A DNA stretch of 64,000 nucleotides from an uncultured Bacilli bacterium (GTDB lineage: Bacteria > Bacillota_I > Bacilli_A > RF39 > UBA660). Below the pieces are notes generated by a model. It was not told the origin of the DNA. It searched no databases and was given only the letters and a program-made list of their open reading frames with translations. Where the stretch lies: assembly GCA_934098705.1 (NCBI GenBank), contig CAKOPC010000002.1:158457-222456 (forward strand). The letters are read 5' to 3'. Shown here in pieces: positions 24,861 to 64,000 of the stretch (positions within the stretch are counted from its first letter, which is position 1; each line of letters begins with the position of its first letter). The translations under genes and the position numbers were made by a program.

Positions 24861-25040
24861 AAGACACCTCCTTATAAAATATATTTTAATCGTGCCTTTA
24901 TAAAAAGTCTTTGTAAGACACTACAAAGACTTTAATATACTTAATTTTAAAGTCCTCGGTAGGATTTACTTTTACAACCTACTGTCTACGGCACAAATAA
25001 ATTTCAAATGTATTATATAATACTTTTATTAATTTGTAAA
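24861..25040 (-). promoter_or_regulatory. Putative L10 (rplJL) leader / autoregulatory 5-prime UTR
   Basis: A 190-nt untranslated gap lies between rplA and rplJ. It contains a perfect 11-bp hairpin (aagtctttgta-agacac-tacaaagactt at about 24907-24934) and further GC-containing stems (cctcggtaggattt...cctactg). This location carries the L10 leader in Firmicutes. Confidence 0.4.
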
Positions 25041-45542: not shown

Positions 45543-45775
45543 AAAAAAAATTTTCATCCCAAAGGACGAAAATATCGTGGTACCACCTTATTTTATAAGT
45601 ATAACAAAATAACAATGTTAAAACTTATCTCAATCTTTTAACGCAAGATAAACGTATTTACTTACATATCAGTAAATCTGTTCCAAAACCATGTTCAGTT
45701 TTATCTACTACTTATTTACACCGACCATAAGCTCTCTATTAATAAATATAAACCTACTCTTTTCTTCACAACATT
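45543..45775 (-). promoter_or_regulatory. Putative T-box riboswitch leader (specifier probably AUG/Met) ahead of dut-metS
   Basis: The minus strand carries AGAGAG followed by cttATGg (a candidate specifier). Further on is AAGGTGGTACCACGA, which matches the T-box sequence AGGGTGGTACCGCG. Then comes the terminator hairpin ttttcgtcc-tttg-ggatgaaaa plus a T8 run, then the RBS aaggagga and the ATG. Confidence 0.55.
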
Positions 45776-45807
45776 TTTTTAATGCATAAATTATAACATA
45801 TATTTTT

Positions 45808-53166: not shown

Positions 53167-54882
53167 TCACTTTAATTCTATTAATTCATCACCAAATAGA
53201 TCTTTTGCCTCATCTAACATTTCATTAGAATCTAAATTTTTAGATGATTCATCACTTATTTTTTCATCATCTAAATTTTTTTCCTGTTGTATCTCATATT
53301 TTATACCATTTTTTAAATCTTGTATATACTTTTGTTTTAAATCCTTCCACTCGTCTTCTAAAATAAAAGCAATTTTATAATGATGTTTCATGGCATCTTC
53401 AAGTAACTCCTCTATTTTAGATATATTAATTAAAGCATTTTTCAAAATTGAACTATATTTTACAGAAACTATTATGTAGTTGTTAGAAGCAACCTTTAAA
53501 ACTCCATCATTCAAATAAGAGCATACTTTACTATATTTTTCAGTAAAAGAATATTCATTTATAGTAGGCCAATTTAACCTTAATTTTTCTAAAATATTCT
53601 TATCAGCCTCTGCAAAAGCATTATTTATTCTAATTAACCTATTTTCTTCAATAACAGAAGACAATTTTGAAATTTTATCATTTAATTCTTTAGATTCTTC
53701 AAATTTTACCTTACCATCTTCAACATAAATACTTTTTTCCTTTATTAAATTAATAGGTGTTACTAAATCTTCTTTAGTATTTTCTTTTTCTTTTTGTAAA
53801 TTTTCAGGTACAAAATTACCAAAATTTTCCTTTTTTTGATTTTTTTCTAATATTTTTAATAATCCAACTTGTAAAATTATTTTAGGAAAGCTACTATTTT
53901 TCATGTTAATAGAAACATCATTTAATATATCAATAGCATCATATATCACTTTTGCATCTAATATACTATTTTTATTATTTTCTATTGCATCAACTAACAT
54001 ATCTTTTAAAAATATCATTAATTCTTGTGCTAATAAGACAAGATTCTTGCCTTTACTATCTTCATCATCAATTTTATCAAACATTTGTTTGATATTGTCG
54101 TTATTAATGCAATCAACAATTATCTTTAAATCCTCTTGCTTAGTAAGCCCCCTTATCTCATAAAAATCATCTTCAGTTACTTTATTATTACAAGAAATAA
54201 GTTTATCAAGCATATTAATAGCATCTCTTAATCCACCATCACTATATTTTGCAATTAATTCCAATGTTCCACGTGGAACATCTAAATTTTCACGTTCTAC
54301 TATCTCATTTAATTTCTTTACTATATCTTTTTCACTTATTTTTTCAAAATTAAAGCATTGGCATCTTGAAACAATAGTTTCTGGAACTTTATAAAATTCG
54401 GTTGTTGCTAATATAAATATTACATGTTGAGGAGGCTCTTCCAAAGTTTTTAGTAAAGCATTAAACGCTCCTATAGACAACATATGTACCTCATCTATAA
54501 TATAAACTTTATATTTTGAAATTGAAGGCATTAAATCTACTTTTTCTTTTATTTCTCTAATTTCATCAACACCATTATTTGAAGCAGCATCAATTTCAAT
54601 AATATCAGGGTTATTCTTATTATTATAAGCTATACAACTATCACATTTATCACAAGCTACTAAACCAGTTCTATTAGAACAATTAACTAATTTAGCAATT
54701 AATTTGGCTGTAGTAGTCTTACCAGTACCCCTAGGACCTGAAAACAAATAAGCATGAGATATTTTATTATTATTAATTGAATTTTCAAGTATTTTTACTA
54801 TTTTATTTTGTCCCACAACTTCTTCAAATTTTTGTGGTCTATATTTTCTATATAAAGCTAAATAACTCATATTCCCACTCAC
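53167..54882 (-). CDS. dnaX: DNA polymerase III subunits gamma/tau
   Basis: YRPQKFEEVVGQ, GPRGTGKTT (Walker A), the zinc module CDKCDSC and DEVHML are present. Confidence 0.95.
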   Translation of the reverse strand: MSGNMSYLALYRKYRPQKFEEVVGQNKIVKILENSINNNKISHAYLFSGPRGTGKTTTAKLIAKLVNCSNRTGLVACDKCDSCIAYNNKNNPDIIEIDAASNNGVDEIREIKEKVDLMPSISKYKVYIIDEVHMLSIGAFNALLKTLEEPPQHVIFILATTEFYKVPETIVSRCQCFNFEKISEKDIVKKLNEIVERENLDVPRGTLELIAKYSDGGLRDAINMLDKLISCNNKVTEDDFYEIRGLTKQEDLKIIVDCINNDNIKQMFDKIDDEDSKGKNLVLLAQELMIFLKDMLVDAIENNKNSILDAKVIYDAIDILNDVSINMKNSSFPKIILQVGLLKILEKNQKKENFGNFVPENLQKEKENTKEDLVTPINLIKEKSIYVEDGKVKFEESKELNDKISKLSSVIEENRLIRINNAFAEADKNILEKLRLNWPTINEYSFTEKYSKVCSYLNDGVLKVASNNYIIVSVKYSSILKNALINISKIEELLEDAMKHHYKIAFILEDEWKDLKQKYIQDLKNGIKYEIQQEKNLDDEKISDESSKNLDSNEMLDEAKDLFGDELIELK

Positions 54883-54984
54883 TTTCTTAAAATATACATT
54901 AATATTATACCTTATAACCCATTTTATTTAAAGATTTTTGTCATTTTAAAGAAAAATATTTAATAATTTTTGTTAATATCTCAA

Positions 54985-55000
54985 TGTTCCACGTGGAACA
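54985..55000. repeat. parS-type palindrome TGTTCCACGTGGAACA (copy 1)
   Basis: An exact 16-bp palindrome with one symmetric substitution relative to the ParB/Spo0J consensus TGTTTCACGTGAAACA. It sits within the 20-bp perfect palindrome AATGTTCCACGTGGAACATT. Confidence 0.75.
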
Positions 55001-55151
55001 TTATAAAAATAATATAAAAATAACTGAAAATTGATAATTTTAGCCTTTTTTAGCTTAAATTAACATTATTTTTATATTTTATATCAAATTTATAAAGTAT
55101 ATTGCATATAATTTTTTTTATAAACATCACTTTTATTGTTAATAACTCCAA

Positions 55152-55167
55152 TGTTCCACGTGGAACA
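55152..55167. repeat. parS-type palindrome (copy 2)
   Basis: TGTTCCACGTGGAACA, preceded by the conserved flank ttattgttaata. Confidence 0.75.
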
Positions 55168-55253
55168 TTGGGCATTTTTATATTAAATAACCAAAATTAT
55201 TATTTTTTATATTTACAAAATAATTATATTTAAAATATAATATCTTTAAAAAT

Positions 55254-55269
55254 TATTTCCCGGGAAATA
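55254..55269. repeat. Noc-binding-site (NBS) palindrome TATTTCCCGGGAAATA (copy a)
   Basis: An exact match to the published B. subtilis Noc-binding consensus. It sits within the 20-bp palindrome ATTATTTCCCGGGAAATAAT. Confidence 0.7.
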
Positions 55270-55374
55270 ATTTTTTATTTGTTAAATTATAACATTATCG
55301 TTTTAATTTATTAATATATCAAAACTATATTAAATATAGTTTTGATATTGTACTTTTTATTGTTAATAAATCAA

Positions 55375-55390
55375 TGTTCCACGTGAAACA
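55375..55390. repeat. parS site TGTTCCACGTGAAACA (copy 3, variant)
   Basis: Identical to the B. subtilis spo0J-internal parS sequence. Confidence 0.8.
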
Positions 55391-55569
55391 TTAAAATTAA
55401 TTTAAATAATGGTATTTAGAATAACATTTAATTAAATATCAAGACATTATTAAATCATATATATAAATATAGTTTTATTTTTTATAATATAAAATTAATT
55501 ACTAATAAATATGTATAATTTTATAATTAAATTTAAAAATTATATTTTATATTTTGTTAATATTTATAA

Positions 55570-55585
55570 TGTTCCACGTGGAACA
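55570..55585. repeat. parS-type palindrome (copy 4)
   Basis: TGTTCCACGTGGAACA with the flank tttgttaatatttata. Confidence 0.75.
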
Positions 55586-55696
55586 TAGTAATCATTAATT
55601 AAAACCATTCCAATCATAATTAATAAAAAGTAATTAAAAAATATATATTATTACTTTTTATTATAATCTATGTTTTTTTTATTGTTAATATCTTAA

Positions 55697-55712
55697 TGTT
55701 CCACGTGGAACA
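55697..55712. repeat. parS-type palindrome (copy 5)
   Basis: TGTTCCACGTGGAACA. Confidence 0.75.
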
Positions 55713-55825
55713 TTATATATGTTATATATAAAATAGTAAAAAAAATGCACATTTTAATATATTTAATATATAGTAATATATTTATAATTTGTTATATTTA
55801 AATTTGTTAAAAATATTAAAAAAAT

Positions 55826-55841
55826 TATTTCCCGGGAAATA
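55826..55841. repeat. NBS palindrome TATTTCCCGGGAAATA (copy b)
   Basis: An exact NBS consensus with a conserved flank (aaaattatttcccgggaaataattttttattt). Confidence 0.7.
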
Positions 55842-55915
55842 ATTTTTTATTTATTGATTAAAATATATAATTATTTTTATATAAATATTGAAAAATATTA
55901 TTGTTAATAAATCAA

Positions 55916-55931
55916 TGTTCCACGTGGAACA
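55916..55931. repeat. parS-type palindrome (copy 6), abutting or overlapping the tadA stop codon
   Basis: TGTTCCACGTGGAACA. The 20-bp palindrome ends at 55933, which is the tadA stop. Confidence 0.75.
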
Positions 55932-55932
55932 T

Positions 55933-56340
55933 TTACCTTAATTTATCAAAAAAAGTATTTAAAAGCTTACTATAACTGATTTTATCCGCTATTTTATAAT
56001 AATTTATATTGTTTACAAAATTTTTATGATAGTTAGAGTCCAAAATATAATATACTTTAGAAATTCTCGATTCATTTATCGCACCCTCACACATTTTACA
56101 TGGTTTTAACGTTGTATATAATATACAATCACTTAATATCCATGTTTTTAATTTTTTACAAGCCCTTTTTATAGCAATTATTTCAGCATGAGCTATAGAA
56201 ATATTAGTTGAATTTTTCATATTATGAGCTTTTGCAATTACTTTGCCATCTTTTACAATAATTGCACTTACTGGTACATTATTGTTTTTATATGCTTTCT
56301 TTGCTTCCTTAAAAAGAATTTCCTCATACTTATCATTCAT
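55933..56340 (-). CDS. tadA: tRNA-specific adenosine(34) deaminase TadA. The start is reassigned to the internal ATG at 56340; the ORF track extends it to 56460.
   Basis: HAEIIAIKRA and PCKMCEGAI (the CDA zinc motifs H-A-E and PC-x-x-C) are present. MNDKYEEILFKEAKKAY aligns with the TadA N-terminus. The RBS ggtgg lies 7 nt upstream of the ATG at 56340. The first 40 aa of the longer ORF have no homology. Confidence 0.85.
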   Translation of the reverse strand: MNDKYEEILFKEAKKAYKNNNVPVSAIIVKDGKVIAKAHNMKNSTNISIAHAEIIAIKRACKKLKTWILSDCILYTTLKPCKMCEGAINESRISKVYYILDSNYHKNFVNNINYYKIADKISYSKLLNTFFDKLR

Positions 56341-56512
56341 AAATACCACCATTTTTTTAATATTAATAAAAAAGTGCACACACATAGAGGTTATTAAGGC
56401 TGCTACTTTCCAATCCTGACCTATTTCTAACATTTGTGTTGCACATATAAATACTAACAAAAATATTATTACTTTGTCAATAAATATTTATTTTTTTATT
56501 ATTAATATTTAA

Positions 56513-56528
56513 TGTTCCACGTGGAACA
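56513..56528. repeat. parS-type palindrome (copy 7)
   Basis: TGTTCCACGTGGAACA. Confidence 0.75.
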
Positions 56529-56631
56529 TTAATAAAGATGATAAATAATTTTTGCAAATATAGTATAATTTATTTAAAAAAATGCTATTATTATTATTTA
56601 TAATGGTTTTTTACTATTGTTAATAAATCAA

Positions 56632-56647
56632 TGTTCCACGTGGAACA
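56632..56647. repeat. parS-type palindrome (copy 8)
   Basis: TGTTCCACGTGGAACA with the flank ctattgttaataaatc. Confidence 0.75.
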
Positions 56648-56743
56648 TTGTACGTTTTTATATAAAATAACTAAAGTTATCATTTTTTTATATCAATAAA
56701 ATAATTATATTTAAATTTTTAAAATATAATATCTTTCAAAAAT

Positions 56744-56759
56744 TATTTCCCGGGAAATA
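56744..56759. repeat. NBS palindrome TATTTCCCGGGAAATA (copy c)
   Basis: An exact NBS consensus. Its flanks are about 90% identical to those of copy a. Confidence 0.7.
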
Positions 56760-56880
56760 ATTTTTTTATTTATTAATTACATTGTTAATGCTTAAAATTA
56801 TTAATAATTTGATTTATCAATATATAATAACAATATCAAATATATTTTTAATATTGTATTTTTTATTGTTAATAAATCAA

Positions 56881-56896
56881 TGTTCCACGTGGAACA
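56881..56896. repeat. parS-type palindrome (copy 9)
   Basis: TGTTCCACGTGGAACA with the flank ttttattgttaataaatc. Confidence 0.75.
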
Positions 56897-57078
56897 TTGA
56901 AATTAAATTAAATAATGAAGTATAAAAAATAGTTGATTAGATAATAAAATATTAGTAATTGATATATAAACTATTACATTGGTATTTTTTTGTTTATAAT
57001 ATTAAAATTATTGATACTATCACAATTAAATTAAAATATTAGTAAATAATATATTTTAAAATTTGTTAATATTTATAA

Positions 57079-57094
57079 TGTTCCACGTGGAACA
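57079..57094. repeat. parS-type palindrome (copy 10)
   Basis: TGTTCCACGTGGAACA with the flank tttgttaatatttata (the same as copy 4). Confidence 0.75.
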
Positions 57095-57258
57095 TTGACT
57101 AACAATACATATTACTTAATACATATTTCAAATATTAATATCTAAATTAAAAGTATAATAAAATATACATATATATTAATTGTTTATCTTTTACTTTAAA
57201 ATGTTATTATTTTTGTAAAATATTATTAGTTAATGAATAATATTTTACAAAAATGCAA

Positions 57259-57274
57259 TGTTCCACGTGGAACA
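57259..57274. repeat. parS-type palindrome (copy 11), embedded in a 28-bp perfect palindrome that ends at the gyrA stop
   Basis: ATGCAATGTTCCACGTGGAACATTGCAT at 57253..57280. The gyrA stop codon is at 57280..57282. Confidence 0.75.
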
Positions 57275-57279
57275 TTGCA

Positions 57280-59733
57280 TTAATTATTATTTTCTTCAGT
57301 ATTATCAAATACCTCTTCTTCTTCTTTTTCAGTAATAGTAACTGATGTAACAGTTTGATTTTCCTTTAGTGAAATTAATCTAACACCTTGAGTATTTCTC
57401 TTTAATGTAGAAATTTTATTAATATCAAGTCTTATAACAATACCATTATTTGTTGTTATAATTGCATCTTCATCACCATCTATTGATTTAAATGCTACCA
57501 AATGTCCATTTTTATCAGTAATGTTTAATCCTTTAACACCCTTACTACCTCTATGTGTTAAACGATATTCTAAAACATTTGTTCGCTTTCCGTAACCCTT
57601 TTCTGTAATGATTAAAATCATTTTATCTTTATTAACAATTTCAGCTCCTACAACAACTTCATCTTCTTTTATATCAATTCCTTTAACACCAGAAGCACTT
57701 CTACCCATTAAACGAACTTCATCTTCAGTAAATCTTACCATTCTACCATTATTTGAAGCCATTATTACTTCATCAATACCAGAAGTCTTACAAACACTTA
57801 TTAATTCATCATCATCTTTTAAAGTTATAGCTATTTTACCAGTTTTTCTTATTAAATCAAATTCTTCTGTTGGAGTACGTTTTACAAGACCTTTTTTAGT
57901 AAAGAATATTAAACTTAAAGGTTTATCCTCATTTTTATCACTATAATTAATAATTGACCTAATACTTTCACCCTTATCTAACTGTAAAAGATTAATTATA
58001 GGTATTCCCTTAGATTGTCTACTAAATTCTGGAATTTCATAACCCTTAATTCTATAAACTCTACCATAATTACTAAAGAATAAAATATAATCATGTGAAC
58101 TACATGTTATAAGTTGTTCTACATAGTCCTCTTCATTTGTTGTCATACCTTTTATTCCAACACCACCACGGTTTTGTGATTTATAAGTATTTACAAGCAA
58201 ACGTTTTATATATCCCTTACTTGTAAGAGAAATCATTATTTTTTCTTCAGGAATTAATGACTCATCCTCTATATAATCAATAGCTGTCATATCAATATTA
58301 GTACGACGTTCATCTGCATATTTTTCTTTTATTTCAAGTAATTCACTCTTAATTATACCAAGTACCTTTTCATCACTTGCTAATATTGAATTTAATTCAT
58401 CTATTAATTTTAACAATTCTTGTAATTCATTTTCAACTTTATCACGTTCAAGACCTGTTAAACGACGTAATTTCATTTCCAAAATAGCATCAGCTTGAAT
58501 TTCTGTTAAACCAAAATTACTAATTAATCCTTGTTTTGCAATTTCATCAGTTTTTGATTCACGAATAAGTTTAATTACGGCATCAATATGATCAAGTGCT
58601 ATTTTTAAGCCTTCTAAAATATGAACTCTAGCTTGAGCTTTACTTAAATCAAACCTTGTCCTACGAATTATTACTTCTCTTTGGAAATCAATATACTTTG
58701 AGATTATATCCTTTAAACATAAAGTTTTAGGAGTACCATTATCAAGCATTAAGAATATAATTCCATATGTTGTTTGAAAAGCAGTATGCTTATATAATTT
58801 ATTTAAAATAACCTGTGGATTAGCATCTTTTTTCAAAGTAATTGTTATTTTAATACCATTTTTTAAATCACTATGATAATCAGTTATACCATCTATTGTT
58901 TTGTTATGAACTAACTCTGCAACCTTATTTTTTAATTCTGATGTATTAACACCATATGGTACTTCATCTATTATAATATAATGTTTTCCATTTTTTTCCT
59001 CTATTGTAGCTTTACTTCTTATAGTAATACTACCTCTTCCTGTTTCATATGCCTTTTTAATACCACTATTACCTAAAATAGTTGCTCCGGTTGGAAAATC
59101 AGGTCCTTTTATAAACTTCATTAAACCATCTGTATCTATATCAGGATTGTCTATATAAGCTACACAACCATCAATTACTTCACCTAAATTATGAGGTGGT
59201 ATATTAGTTGCCATACCAACTGCTATTCCCATTGTTCCATTTACTAATATATTAGGAAACCTTGATGGTAAAACAGAAGGTTCTTTTTCTGAATCATCAA
59301 AGTTTGGAACAAAATCAACCGTATCCTTATTTATATTTCTTAAAAGTTCAAGTGATATTTTTGATAAACGAGATTCTGTATAACGCATTGCAGCAGCTCC
59401 ATAACCTTCTATATTACCAAAATTACCATGTCCATCAACTAACATATGTCTGTAAGAAAAATCCTGTGCCATTCTTACCATAGCTTCATAAATTGAACTA
59501 TCACCATGTGGATGATATTTACCCATTACATCTCCAACTATTCTTGCACTTTTTTTATGAGGTTTATCAGGTGTATATCCAGATTCATACATAGAATATA
59601 AAATTCTTCTATGTACTGGCTTTAAACCATCTCTTAAATCAGGTAAAGCACGAGCAATGATAACACTCATTGAATAGTCCAAAAATGAATCTTTTACTTC
59701 TTTTACTATATTATTTTTTTCTAAACGATCCAT
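57280..59733 (-). CDS. gyrA: DNA gyrase subunit A
   Basis: The active-site region is AAMRYTE. The QRDR region [16 protein letters not shown], the GyrA-box and an acidic C-terminal tail are present. Confidence 0.97.
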
Positions 59734-62878: not shown

Positions 62879-63346
62879 TTATTCTTCTTTTTTTAGACTT
62901 GTTCTAACATTTAATACAGAATTTAAAAGTGATGCTTTAACCATTTGATTATATATTTGATTATATGGTATTCTTATAATAAATTTTTTACCAGTTTTAA
63001 AAAGTATAAGCGTATTTTTATCCTTTTTTTTAAGTTCTAAAATATTATTAAAAGCAATCCACATATTATTAGATAATCTAGGAGATGTTGTTGGAAAAAA
63101 CGTTATATTATTTCTTTCATCTATTATAATTGGTGTTTTATATATTTTTCCAAGCAAATTTTTACTACCTTCTATCCTCCCATTATAAGAACTACCATAA
63201 AATTTACAACTATCATTAACTATTGTATAAATATCACAGTTTACTCTGTATTCTTTATTATTTTCAATAACTTTTGTCACTGTTTGCTTTAATGGCACTA
63301 AAGCACAAGTATTTTCATTAATCAAATAACCCATAAAATCCCCCAA
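62879..63346 (-). CDS. comK: ComK-family competence transcription factor homolog
   Basis: CKFYGSSYNGRIEGS is close to B. subtilis ComK CRFFGSSYAGRKAGT. KTPIIIDERNNITFFPTTSP is close to KPPIMVDPSNQIFLFPTLSS. IRIPYNQIYNQMVKASLL is close to LPISYNSFENQVYRTAWL. Confidence 0.65.
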   Translation of the reverse strand: MGDFMGYLINENTCALVPLKQTVTKVIENNKEYRVNCDIYTIVNDSCKFYGSSYNGRIEGSKNLLGKIYKTPIIIDERNNITFFPTTSPRLSNNMWIAFNNILELKKKDKNTLILFKTGKKFIIRIPYNQIYNQMVKASLLNSVLNVRTSLKKEE

Positions 63347-63415
63347 TATAAGTAAAAAATTGTAATAAAAAAGTATTACGAAATAATCATAATACTTTAA
63401 TTTGTAAAAATTTGT

Positions 63416-64000
63416 CTAATTATCTTTATTTTTGCCAATTATTTGAATTATTCTTAAAAATAAATTTATATAATCAAGGTATATTTGAAAAGCTGCATAT
63501 ATAGCTCCTTTACTATCACCATACATATAATTCGAATTAGGTAATACATGATTAACATCATACGCTGTAAACATTAGAAATACTATAATTCCTACTATGT
63601 TAATAACAAAGTCTATATTTTGACTTCCAATAAATATATTAACAATAGTTGTTATTATAATTCCTAAAAGTGCAAAGAGTAAATAAATACCCCATTTTGT
63701 TAAATCTCTTTTAGTAAAATAACCATATAATGCAAGTAATAAAAATAATATTGAAGTTATTAAAAATACAAATATTATTGATGACATATTATATAGTAAA
63801 AATATTGATGATAATGTAAATCCTGTTGTAAACGAATAAAGTATATAACATGCATAAGCAAGAAATGTTGGCATCTTAGAAAGCAGAAAATTAAAGACAA
63901 TAACTATTCCTATTTCTAATAATAATATAAACAAAAGTGAAGTACTTGAAAACATTTTTATTATAAGTTCTGGATTTAATGATACACAGTAACCTGTTAA
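63416..64000 (-). CDS. Bax-inhibitor-1/YccA family membrane protein. Partial: the ORF stays open upstream of the annotated Met to the window end.
   Basis: It has multiple transmembrane helices and a basic C-terminus (IIGKNKDN). The frame stays open (LTGYCVSLNPELIIK) from 64000 down to the Met at 63955. Confidence 0.5.
   Translation of the reverse strand, partial: LTGYCVSLNPELIIKMFSSTSLLFILLLEIGIVIVFNFLLSKMPTFLAYACYILYSFTTGFTLSSIFLLYNMSSIIFVFLITSILFLLLALYGYFTKRDLTKWGIYLLFALLGIIITTIVNIFIGSQNIDFVINIVGIIVFLMFTAYDVNHVLPNSNYMYGDSKGAIYAAFQIYLDYINLFLRIIQIIGKNKDN

Follow-up and report, generated by a model that had tools for sequence, protein, structure and literature searches.

ParB, Noc and DnaA are usually studied as separate systems with separate sites, and the cross-talk among them is either indirect (through Soj, in Bacillus subtilis) or unexplained (the restraint of initiation by Noc, in Staphylococcus aureus). 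The sopC centromere of plasmid F consists of twelve tandem repeats of 43 bp, and in plasmid centromeres of this type each direct repeat carries one inverted-repeat site and copy number shifts by recombination between repeats. On the B. subtilis chromosome, the Spo0J/parS system combines canonical ParB and ParA proteins with origin-proximal copies of a 16-bp palindrome, one of them in a coding sequence. In model species, Noc-binding sites (NBS) are spread widely around the origin, at 41 loci in S. aureus (PMC5540599), and are absent near the terminus. Noc has an N-terminal membrane-targeting helix that is required for nucleoid occlusion (PMC8429893). The DnaA-box clusters (DBCs) of B. subtilis act together with Spo0J/Soj (PMC3245932), and DnaA binds the Caulobacter centromere (Mera 2014, as relayed in PMC6399470). 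The window analysed here, a stretch of 64,000 nt from contig CAKOPC010000002.1 of an uncultured, low-G+C gut member of the Bacilli, in which positions are counted from the first letter, holds candidate sites for all three proteins at a single locus: the segment 54265-57274, with 12 parS, three NBS and nine predicted variant DnaA boxes, is probably an origin-proximal chromosomal centromere that was built in part by duplication of repeats.

With up to two mismatches allowed, the parS palindrome TGTTCCACGTGGAACA has 12 matches in the 64 kb, against 0.02 expected, starting at 54265, 54985, 55152, 55375 (one mismatch), 55570, 55697, 55916, 56513, 56632, 56881, 57079 and 57259 (parS0 to parS11, in this order). 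Eleven of the twelve are perfect, also when held to the 16-bp form tGTTNCACGTGNAACa; eleven are intergenic and one is within the dnaX coding sequence. The NBS sequence ATTTCCCGGGAAAT has three perfect matches (at 55255, 55827 and 56745), all inside two spacers, and no further match in the 64 kb even with two mismatches allowed. Every parS and NBS of the window falls within 54265-57274, and both palindromes agree with published parS and NBS sequences (PMC7383237). The 12 parS sites are packed into 3 kb of mainly non-coding DNA, in repeat units that are irregularly spaced, 119-597 bp apart. The window has a G+C content of ~25%, and nearly all of its genes are on the minus strand, where the order is recF, gyrB, gyrA, a 0.8-kb spacer, ffs, tadA, a 1.05-kb spacer, dnaX, ybaB and recR. 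The palindrome, the origin-proximal position, the canonical ParB and ParA and the single site in a coding sequence are as in the Spo0J/parS system of B. subtilis, whereas the concentration of 12 sites in 3 kb at one locus, interleaved with NBS and predicted DnaA boxes, is not. The NBS core is identical to that of B. subtilis and S. aureus, but here NBS are concentrated in the centromere. As in sopC, the units are direct repeats that each carry one inverted-repeat site, but they are diverged, irregular and chromosomal, and carry candidate sites of as many as three proteins; only relatives have regular tandem arrays of this kind (contigs L045 and L013, below).

A sequence-only reading of this DNA had described the array as diverged direct copies of a parS-NBS-parS(-parS) module flanking tadA. 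This description holds for two of the three proposed copies, module A (55129-55590, plus strand), with parS2 at 55152-55167, NBS-a at 55255-55268, parS3 at 55375-55390 (one mismatch) and parS4 at 55570-55585, and its paralogue, module C (56611-57098, plus strand), with parS8 at 56632-56647, NBS-c at 56745-56758, parS9 at 56881-56896 and parS10 at 57079-57094. Chance alignment is high in AT-rich DNA, so parS and NBS were masked and dinucleotide shuffles were used as controls; pairs of non-homologous spacers, which give the background, align at 64-72% identity with z near 0. The segments 55129-55600 and 56611-57100 are collinear; of the 514 columns in their alignment, 395 are identical (77%, or 88% when gapped columns are left out), close to the roughly 80% that had been estimated. 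The three spacers that A and C share are 73-78% identical (z = 9.9, 10.2 and 6.4 versus shuffles), and the only strong self-diagonals of the masked segment 54883-57279 are at offsets 1480-1509, which represent A versus C, so that self-alignment does reveal similarity outside the palindromes. Homology of A and C ends at the outer parS sites (z = 1.3 outside them), so that parS units mark the limits of the duplicated block. Modules A and C are true segmental duplicates of a ~470-bp block (parS-NBS-parS-parS) on both sides of ffs-tadA.

Module B (55676-55935, plus strand), with parS5 at 55697-55712, NBS-b at 55827-55840 and parS6 at 55916-55931, had been taken as a third copy of the core, but its spacers match those of A and C only at background level (z 0.7-2.6, not significant), leaving site order and site-proximal flanks in common; parS6 and NBS-b are instead an ancestral anchor that sister species also possess. 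When single units were compared, the pairs parS3/9, parS2/8 and parS4/10 stood out, and other pairs had a one-sided flank alone in common. Tandem Repeats Finder detected no array in the window, which has no regular, high-identity, head-to-tail units like those of sopC. The basic repeat unit is a parS with an adjacent variant box, ~35-40 bp in all, and the flank keeps to one side and one orientation in 10 of the 11 intergenic parS, an arrangement that supports direct duplication, from which it would be expected.

The flanks had been described as conserved well beyond the palindromes, and conservation is evident, but it is uneven. The element ttattgttaataaatc, reported before copies 2, 3, 5, 6, 8 and 9, is exact before copies 3, 6 and 9 only; copy 8 is one base off, and copies 2 and 5 have just ttattgttaata in common with the other flanks. 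The element reported before copies 4 and 10 is exact at both (tttgttaatatttata), and the 30-bp context reported around NBS-a and NBS-c matches between the copies except for 1-nt indels. Copies 1 and 7 have related flanks, copy 11 has none, and copies 3, 6, 8 and 9 additionally have in common the linker and, past the box, a T-run; overall, the linker that separates the box from parS varies from 5 to 7 nt in length, and in sequence. The core TTGTTAATA occurs 19 times in the window versus 5.8 expected, and nine of the 19 are located 5-7 nt on the 5' side of a parS on the plus strand. Two other identities for the flank were considered. A general extension of parS was rejected, only AATGTTNCACGTGNAACATT and AAAATTATTTCCCGGGAAATAATTTT being conserved among 478 parS in 119 species, and a promoter was dropped, since 56 promoter-like matches versus 39 in shuffles are uninformative in DNA of 20% G+C content.

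Read on the minus strand, the flank TTGTTAATA(A) is TTATTAACA, which most probably represents a variant DnaA box and not just a duplication scar, because it is the dominant repeat of the oriC spacers of this lineage, whose DnaA has an altered recognition motif. The origin region is represented by another contig (L001) with the gene order gidB, mnmG, mnmE, jag, yidC, rnpA, rpmH | dnaA, dnaN, Bax1-I protein, ComK, recF, gyrB, gyrA, array. The array begins ~9.5 kb from the rpmH|dnaA divergence, which is taken as the origin because the GC skew changes sign there in this gene order; box clusters are present there as well. L001 shows no enrichment of canonical DnaA boxes (8 versus 7.6 expected, with none in the oriC spacers, and TTATNCACA is absent from both the rpmH-dnaA and dnaA-dnaN spacers), a result that led to a search for a variant box. 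In 558 bp of L001 oriC spacers, TATTAACA is present in 13 copies versus 0.24 expected and is the most enriched 8-mer; TTATTAACA with one mismatch allowed is present in 14 copies in the rpmH-dnaA spacer and six in the dnaA-dnaN spacer, where the boxes are followed by an AT-rich run. The recognition motif in domain IV of DnaA is GGKNHATVMHS (L001:7050-7397, and likewise in L251 and L252) versus GGRDHTTV(L/I)HA in Escherichia coli (1J1V) and B. subtilis (8BTG); the altered D and T are base-contacting residues in the 1J1V complex. Two relatives (MnmG 86% and 79% identical) possess the same altered motif and the same variant boxes in oriC, and the combination of an altered DnaA with TTATTAACA boxes and no canonical boxes in oriC may represent co-evolution of the initiator and its box.

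The window has 15 exact copies of TTATTAACA. Five of them, each on the minus strand, belong to the 2.4-kb array, and the 9-mer is 13-fold denser in the array than in the rest of the window. With ATATTAACA included, there are nine motifs of the form (T/A)TATTAACA on the minus strand between 54971 and 57072 (54971-54979, 55137-55145, 55361-55369, 55555-55563, 55683-55691, 55902-55910, 56618-56626, 56867-56875 and 57064-57072), and nine of the 11 intergenic parS are accompanied by such a box at a distance of 5-6 nt, with side and orientation constant. Predicted boxes of the lineage's own type are thus clustered outside oriC, nine of them in 2.4 kb. Because the flank is probably a functional DnaA box, its conservation is equivocal as a sign of common descent. 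Canonical boxes are found in this position in other species: TTATNCACA abuts parS 72 times in 1740 parS half-flanks versus 2.8 +/- 2.7 for 200 permuted motifs (maximum 18), and abuts NBS 40 times versus 2.1 +/- 2.9, mainly 0-8 nt from the edge of the site. Examples are parS-TTATCCACA, which occurs three times in L117, and NBS-TTATACACA-parS in L037. The DBCs of B. subtilis, datA of E. coli and the Caulobacter centromere likewise have DnaA boxes outside yet near oriC and a known link to Spo0J/Soj or ParB, whereas the predicted boxes here abut single parS or NBS (0-8 nt), seem to have been duplicated along with them, and have a variant sequence paired with an altered DnaA motif.

Genes for the cognate proteins are found on a conspecific contig (L007) in the order gidB, RNase R, a Noc-like protein of the ParB family (411 aa), ParA and ParB (293 aa). 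The 293-aa ParB is canonical, with an N-terminal LGRGL motif, GERRxRA and ENLQR, and ParA is adjacent. Four positions determine specificity: R173/T179/A184/G201 goes with parS, and Q/K/K/R with NBS, for which a single lysine is sufficient (Jalal 2020, PMC7383237); at these positions the 293-aa ParB has R-I-T-G and the Noc-like protein has Q-K-N-R, of which Q173, K179 and R201 are NBS-type, as in orthologues of Noc. Among solved structures, Noc (7NG0, 7NFU and 7OL9) matches this protein best, and as in the Noc systems of B. subtilis and S. aureus the paralogue is encoded upstream of parA-parB. The Noc-like protein has only 16 aa ahead of PNRFQPR, the reading frame being closed by stops further upstream; its alignment to 7NFU starts at residue 26 of that structure, and, in contrast to Noc of the model species, it has a long low-complexity linker and no N-terminal amphipathic helix. 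A short N-terminus, Q-K-N-R and linkers of variable length were found in 13 of 13 clade homologues examined; the low-complexity linker (in the protein encoded at L007:11540-12775) varies greatly across the clade, from 100 to 350 aa. Most of the homologues examined also have a small conserved linker motif, NIFxxLR. The ~82 kb of this genome that were covered contain no NBS other than the three of the array; in relatives, a few are located within dnaX or past it.

At least 23 human gut metagenome contigs encode a RecF identical to that of the window, and six of these contigs were read (L001-L006). The array of L001 is identical to that of the window, and strain arrays are 96.6-100% identical across six independent assemblies. 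The differences among strains are a 215/226-bp unit, a 127-bp unit and a 66-bp piece whose loss removes NBS-b; the 215/226-bp and 127-bp indels span parS to parS, with breakpoints within AATGTTCCACGTGGAACATTGA(C/T)TTATTAACAATA or the 20-bp parS core. For none of these three polymorphisms was a close paralogue of the missing DNA found, and all are therefore best read as deletions and not as expansions. Unit loss between repeats is shown directly by these strain-level deletions; turnover of the array would take place by homologous recombination or slippage between identical repeats of 20-35 bp (parS with or without the box), and the same process would have made the older A/C duplication. The proposal that the centromere grew by segmental duplication, leaving tadA between copies, is borne out by A and C around ffs-tadA and by similar modules in relatives; the strain differences, as whole parS-to-parS units with breakpoints in the repeats, also fit it, although as losses and not as growth. 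Nor is tadA alone between the copies, since ffs, the gene for the signal recognition particle (SRP) RNA, shares the interval and had been overlooked.

Related arrays were collected by a genome scan (one genome per GTDB species, pattern parS-N{85,115}-NBS, at least 119 stretches) and a metagenome scan (contigs with parS and NBS 15-45 nt apart, at least 120 stretches); both required a parS-NBS pair, and they consequently measure neither the absence of arrays nor their prevalence outside the clade. All of the at least 119 genome matches listed are low-G+C metagenome-assembled genomes labelled Bacilli, Tenericutes, Mollicutes or Erysipelotrichaceae. Homologues of gyrA, tadA and/or dnaX, in one orientation, adjoin the sites in 119 of the 119 genome matches listed, and gyrA, tadA or dnaX is beside them in 116 of the 120 metagenome matches listed, the other four including three contigs of less than 2 kb. 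Mixed parS/NBS arrays at the gyrA-tadA-dnaX locus are present in more than 200 related contigs, with a highly variable order of parS (P) and NBS (N) that ranges from strict alternation (PNPNPN...) to NPPPPPN. Some are regular: L045 has 8.8 copies of a 75-bp parS+NBS tandem unit (92% identity), and L013 has 8.1 copies of an 82-bp unit (93% identity). In L253, parS, NBS and two variant boxes in inverted arrangement make up a ~155-bp module that follows gyrA and again follows tadA, the copies being nearly identical in alignment, and a third, partial copy comes after them. A scan of a viral contig collection for the parS-NBS pair gave no matches, and no description of interleaved parS/NBS arrays was found in literature searches.

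Three sister species (DnaX 66-67% identical) have the arrangements PPPP[tadA]PNNNNN, PP[tadA]PNN and PPP[tadA]PPNN. In these and in the window, a parS directly follows the gyrA stop and another the tadA stop, and two of the three sister species have an NBS 75-80 bp beyond the parS that follows tadA. Only ffs-tadA and the parS6/NBS-b pair can be aligned between species; no homology was found between the A/C spacers and the sister-species arrays. Because the pair on the 3' side of tadA aligns and recurs in the sister species, it is ancestral and orthologous to theirs, whereas the NBS-bearing module C on the gyrA side appears to be specific to this species. Modules A and C differ by ~23%, versus arrays that are 96.6-100% identical among strains; comparison with related genomes, which had been suggested for timing the duplication, therefore indicates that it is older than the strains but younger than the species split. 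Module C is probably the derived copy, because the three nearest sister species carry NBS only on the tadA-dnaX side.

Several features of related genomes were noted in passing. At least 22 related species (L048, L039, L049, L091 and ~18 other loci) have a perfect NBS, AAAATTATTTCCCGGGAAATAATTTC, within the dnaX coding sequence, roughly 1.03-1.2 kb into the gene, where it encodes K-I-I-S-R-E-I-I, and six further species have an NBS ~1.73-1.82 kb from the dnaX start, which suggests selection for NBS even in genes near the array. In the sister species represented by L127 (4720-5900), L129 and L130, a conserved flank of ~30 nt, AATACAAAAAAGTGGAGAAAATCGCCAATT, is upstream of each NBS; it has five copies in L127 and is shared between species. 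A metagenome contig of 4540 bp and 49% G+C (L209) has the pattern PPNP without a homologue of gyrA, tadA or dnaX, and may be a parS/NBS array outside the low-G+C clade.

If each site had instead arisen on its own, whether through point evolution or as a single inserted site, the flanks would be alike through functional convergence on the DnaA box, and several features fit such an origin: the flank core is the oriC repeat TTATTAACA, the linkers between box and parS vary in length and sequence, the spacers of B compare with those of A and C at background, and different boxes abut parS in other species. This explanation is refuted for A and C by masked spacers with z = 6-10 that are collinear over 470 bp, and it is unlikely overall, given that every box is on one side in one orientation, that copies 3, 6, 8 and 9 share more than the box, and that tandem and duplicated modules exist in relatives. 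The assertion that a module was expanded, as opposed to individual sites evolving separately, accordingly stands for A and C but is not demonstrable for B. It is also doubtful that TTATTAACA is the site of some other origin-associated protein or a compositional quirk. It agrees with canonical TTATCCACA at just 7 of 9 positions, its recognition by DnaA is a prediction, and copies with one mismatch are common in AT-rich DNA (2.4 per kb in the window); nevertheless, it is the top enriched word in both oriC spacers, where an AT-rich run follows and canonical boxes are missing, the recognition helix of DnaA is altered in the three species with TTATTAACA boxes, and canonical boxes take the same place beside parS in other species.

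A function of the palindromes mainly as transcription terminators or insulators between gyrA, ffs-tadA and dnaX, with protein binding secondary, would account for the seven terminator-like sites (0.2 expected), every one of them a parS, for the placement of parS6 and NBS-b after tadA, for the extended palindromes around anchor sites in sister species, and for the hairpin of parS11 on the gyrA transcript, a 13-bp stem (-19.2 kcal/mol, z = -5.4) followed by UUUUUG. Yet 2.4 kb of spacer has no need of eleven terminators, the NBS hairpins are weak (-8 to -9 kcal/mol, z about -1.6 to -2.1), and the parS and NBS matches are exact in a species that has cognate ParB and Noc-like genes, all of which makes this a very unlikely primary role; parS11 (57252-57281) and parS6 (55914-55933), each a hairpin with a T-rich tail, probably double as the terminators of gyrA and tadA. 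That the repeats are collapsed or chimeric products of metagenome assembly is scarcely credible: the source is indeed metagenomic and repeat-rich, but the arrays agree at 96.6-100% in six independent assemblies, on contigs of 55-108 kb, and A and C, at just 77% identity, are too diverged to confuse an assembler.

Other observations weigh against the interpretation of the locus as a partly duplicated centromere with three binding proteins. For module B and the single parS units, duplication cannot be demonstrated, as selection for DnaA boxes could keep their flanks alike. The direction from A to C rests on three sister species, and gyrA-side NBS are frequent in the wider clade. A canonical box is within 20 nt of a site in just 31 of 242 other contigs, and the nearest sister species mostly have no boxes adjacent to parS. 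With 301 bits on the NCBIfam Noc model, the Noc-like protein falls slightly short of the cutoff (315), and it is without the ~25 N-terminal residues that carry the amphipathic membrane helix of Noc; because of the score and the missing helix, its function may differ from that of Noc. Binding of the array by ParB, the Noc-like protein and DnaA is, for all three, a prediction.

The favoured interpretation remains a centromere at which ParB loading would be combined with DnaA titration coupled in cis and with loading of the Noc-like protein, by analogy with B. subtilis and Caulobacter. From what is known of these families, the partition complex would be formed by ParB-CTP clamps loaded at parS, NBS would serve as loading sites of the Noc-like paralogue, and DnaA would occupy the boxes, so that segregation, the action of the Noc-like protein and the availability of DnaA might be coupled in cis beside oriC in the manner of the B. 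subtilis DBCs with Spo0J/Soj. A more tentative possibility, on balance not the expected one, is that the centromere of a large uncultured clade of gut and rumen Bacilli is a three-factor hub in which ParB, a helix-less Noc paralogue and DnaA meet on abutting, co-duplicated sites. If so, the original or alternative role of Noc would be at the centromere or in the control of replication initiation and not in genome-wide nucleoid occlusion, and the cross-talk of segregation with initiation would be encoded in cis. The presence of three kinds of site within a few bp, recurring across hundreds of species, would offer a natural system for the study of whether the proteins compete, cooperate or obstruct one another's sliding along DNA. 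The arrays also bear on how Noc/NBS evolved from ParB/parS, since NBS is parS with two changes per half-site and is nested here in duplicating parS arrays, and they would represent a chromosomal centromere that evolves within one species by birth and death of repeat units.

The remaining features of the locus are as follows. The flanking genes dnaX (53167-54870) and gyrA (57280-59733) are both on the minus strand. Within dnaX, parS0 (54265-54280) occupies codons for V-P-R-G-T and is kept in all strains, but not in the sister species; parS1, from the TGTTCCACGTGGAACA motif scan, is at 54985-55000, and parS11 (57259-57274) is 5 nt past the gyrA stop. The tadA gene (55933-56340, minus strand) encodes 135 aa, a 175-aa open reading frame call being an extension into the SRP RNA gene. 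The latter, ffs (56358-56453, minus strand), encodes a small SRP RNA (58.7 bits in Rfam), the only RNA family matched by a Rfam scan of the array, and is directly upstream of tadA; it is preceded by a promoter-like TTGACA-18-TAGTAT (56480-56451, minus strand), and parS7 (56513-56528) is ~20 nt upstream of the -35 hexamer. The conserved gene order of the origin has unusual insertions, namely the genes for a ComK-family protein and a Bax1-I membrane protein between dnaN and recF (62879-63955 of the window; L001:8705-9889) and the RNase R gene between gidB and the noc-like gene in L007. Elsewhere, the minus strand of the window carries a T-box leader (45559-45778) and a ribosomal protein L10 leader (24892-25009), ordinary elements with no relation to the array.

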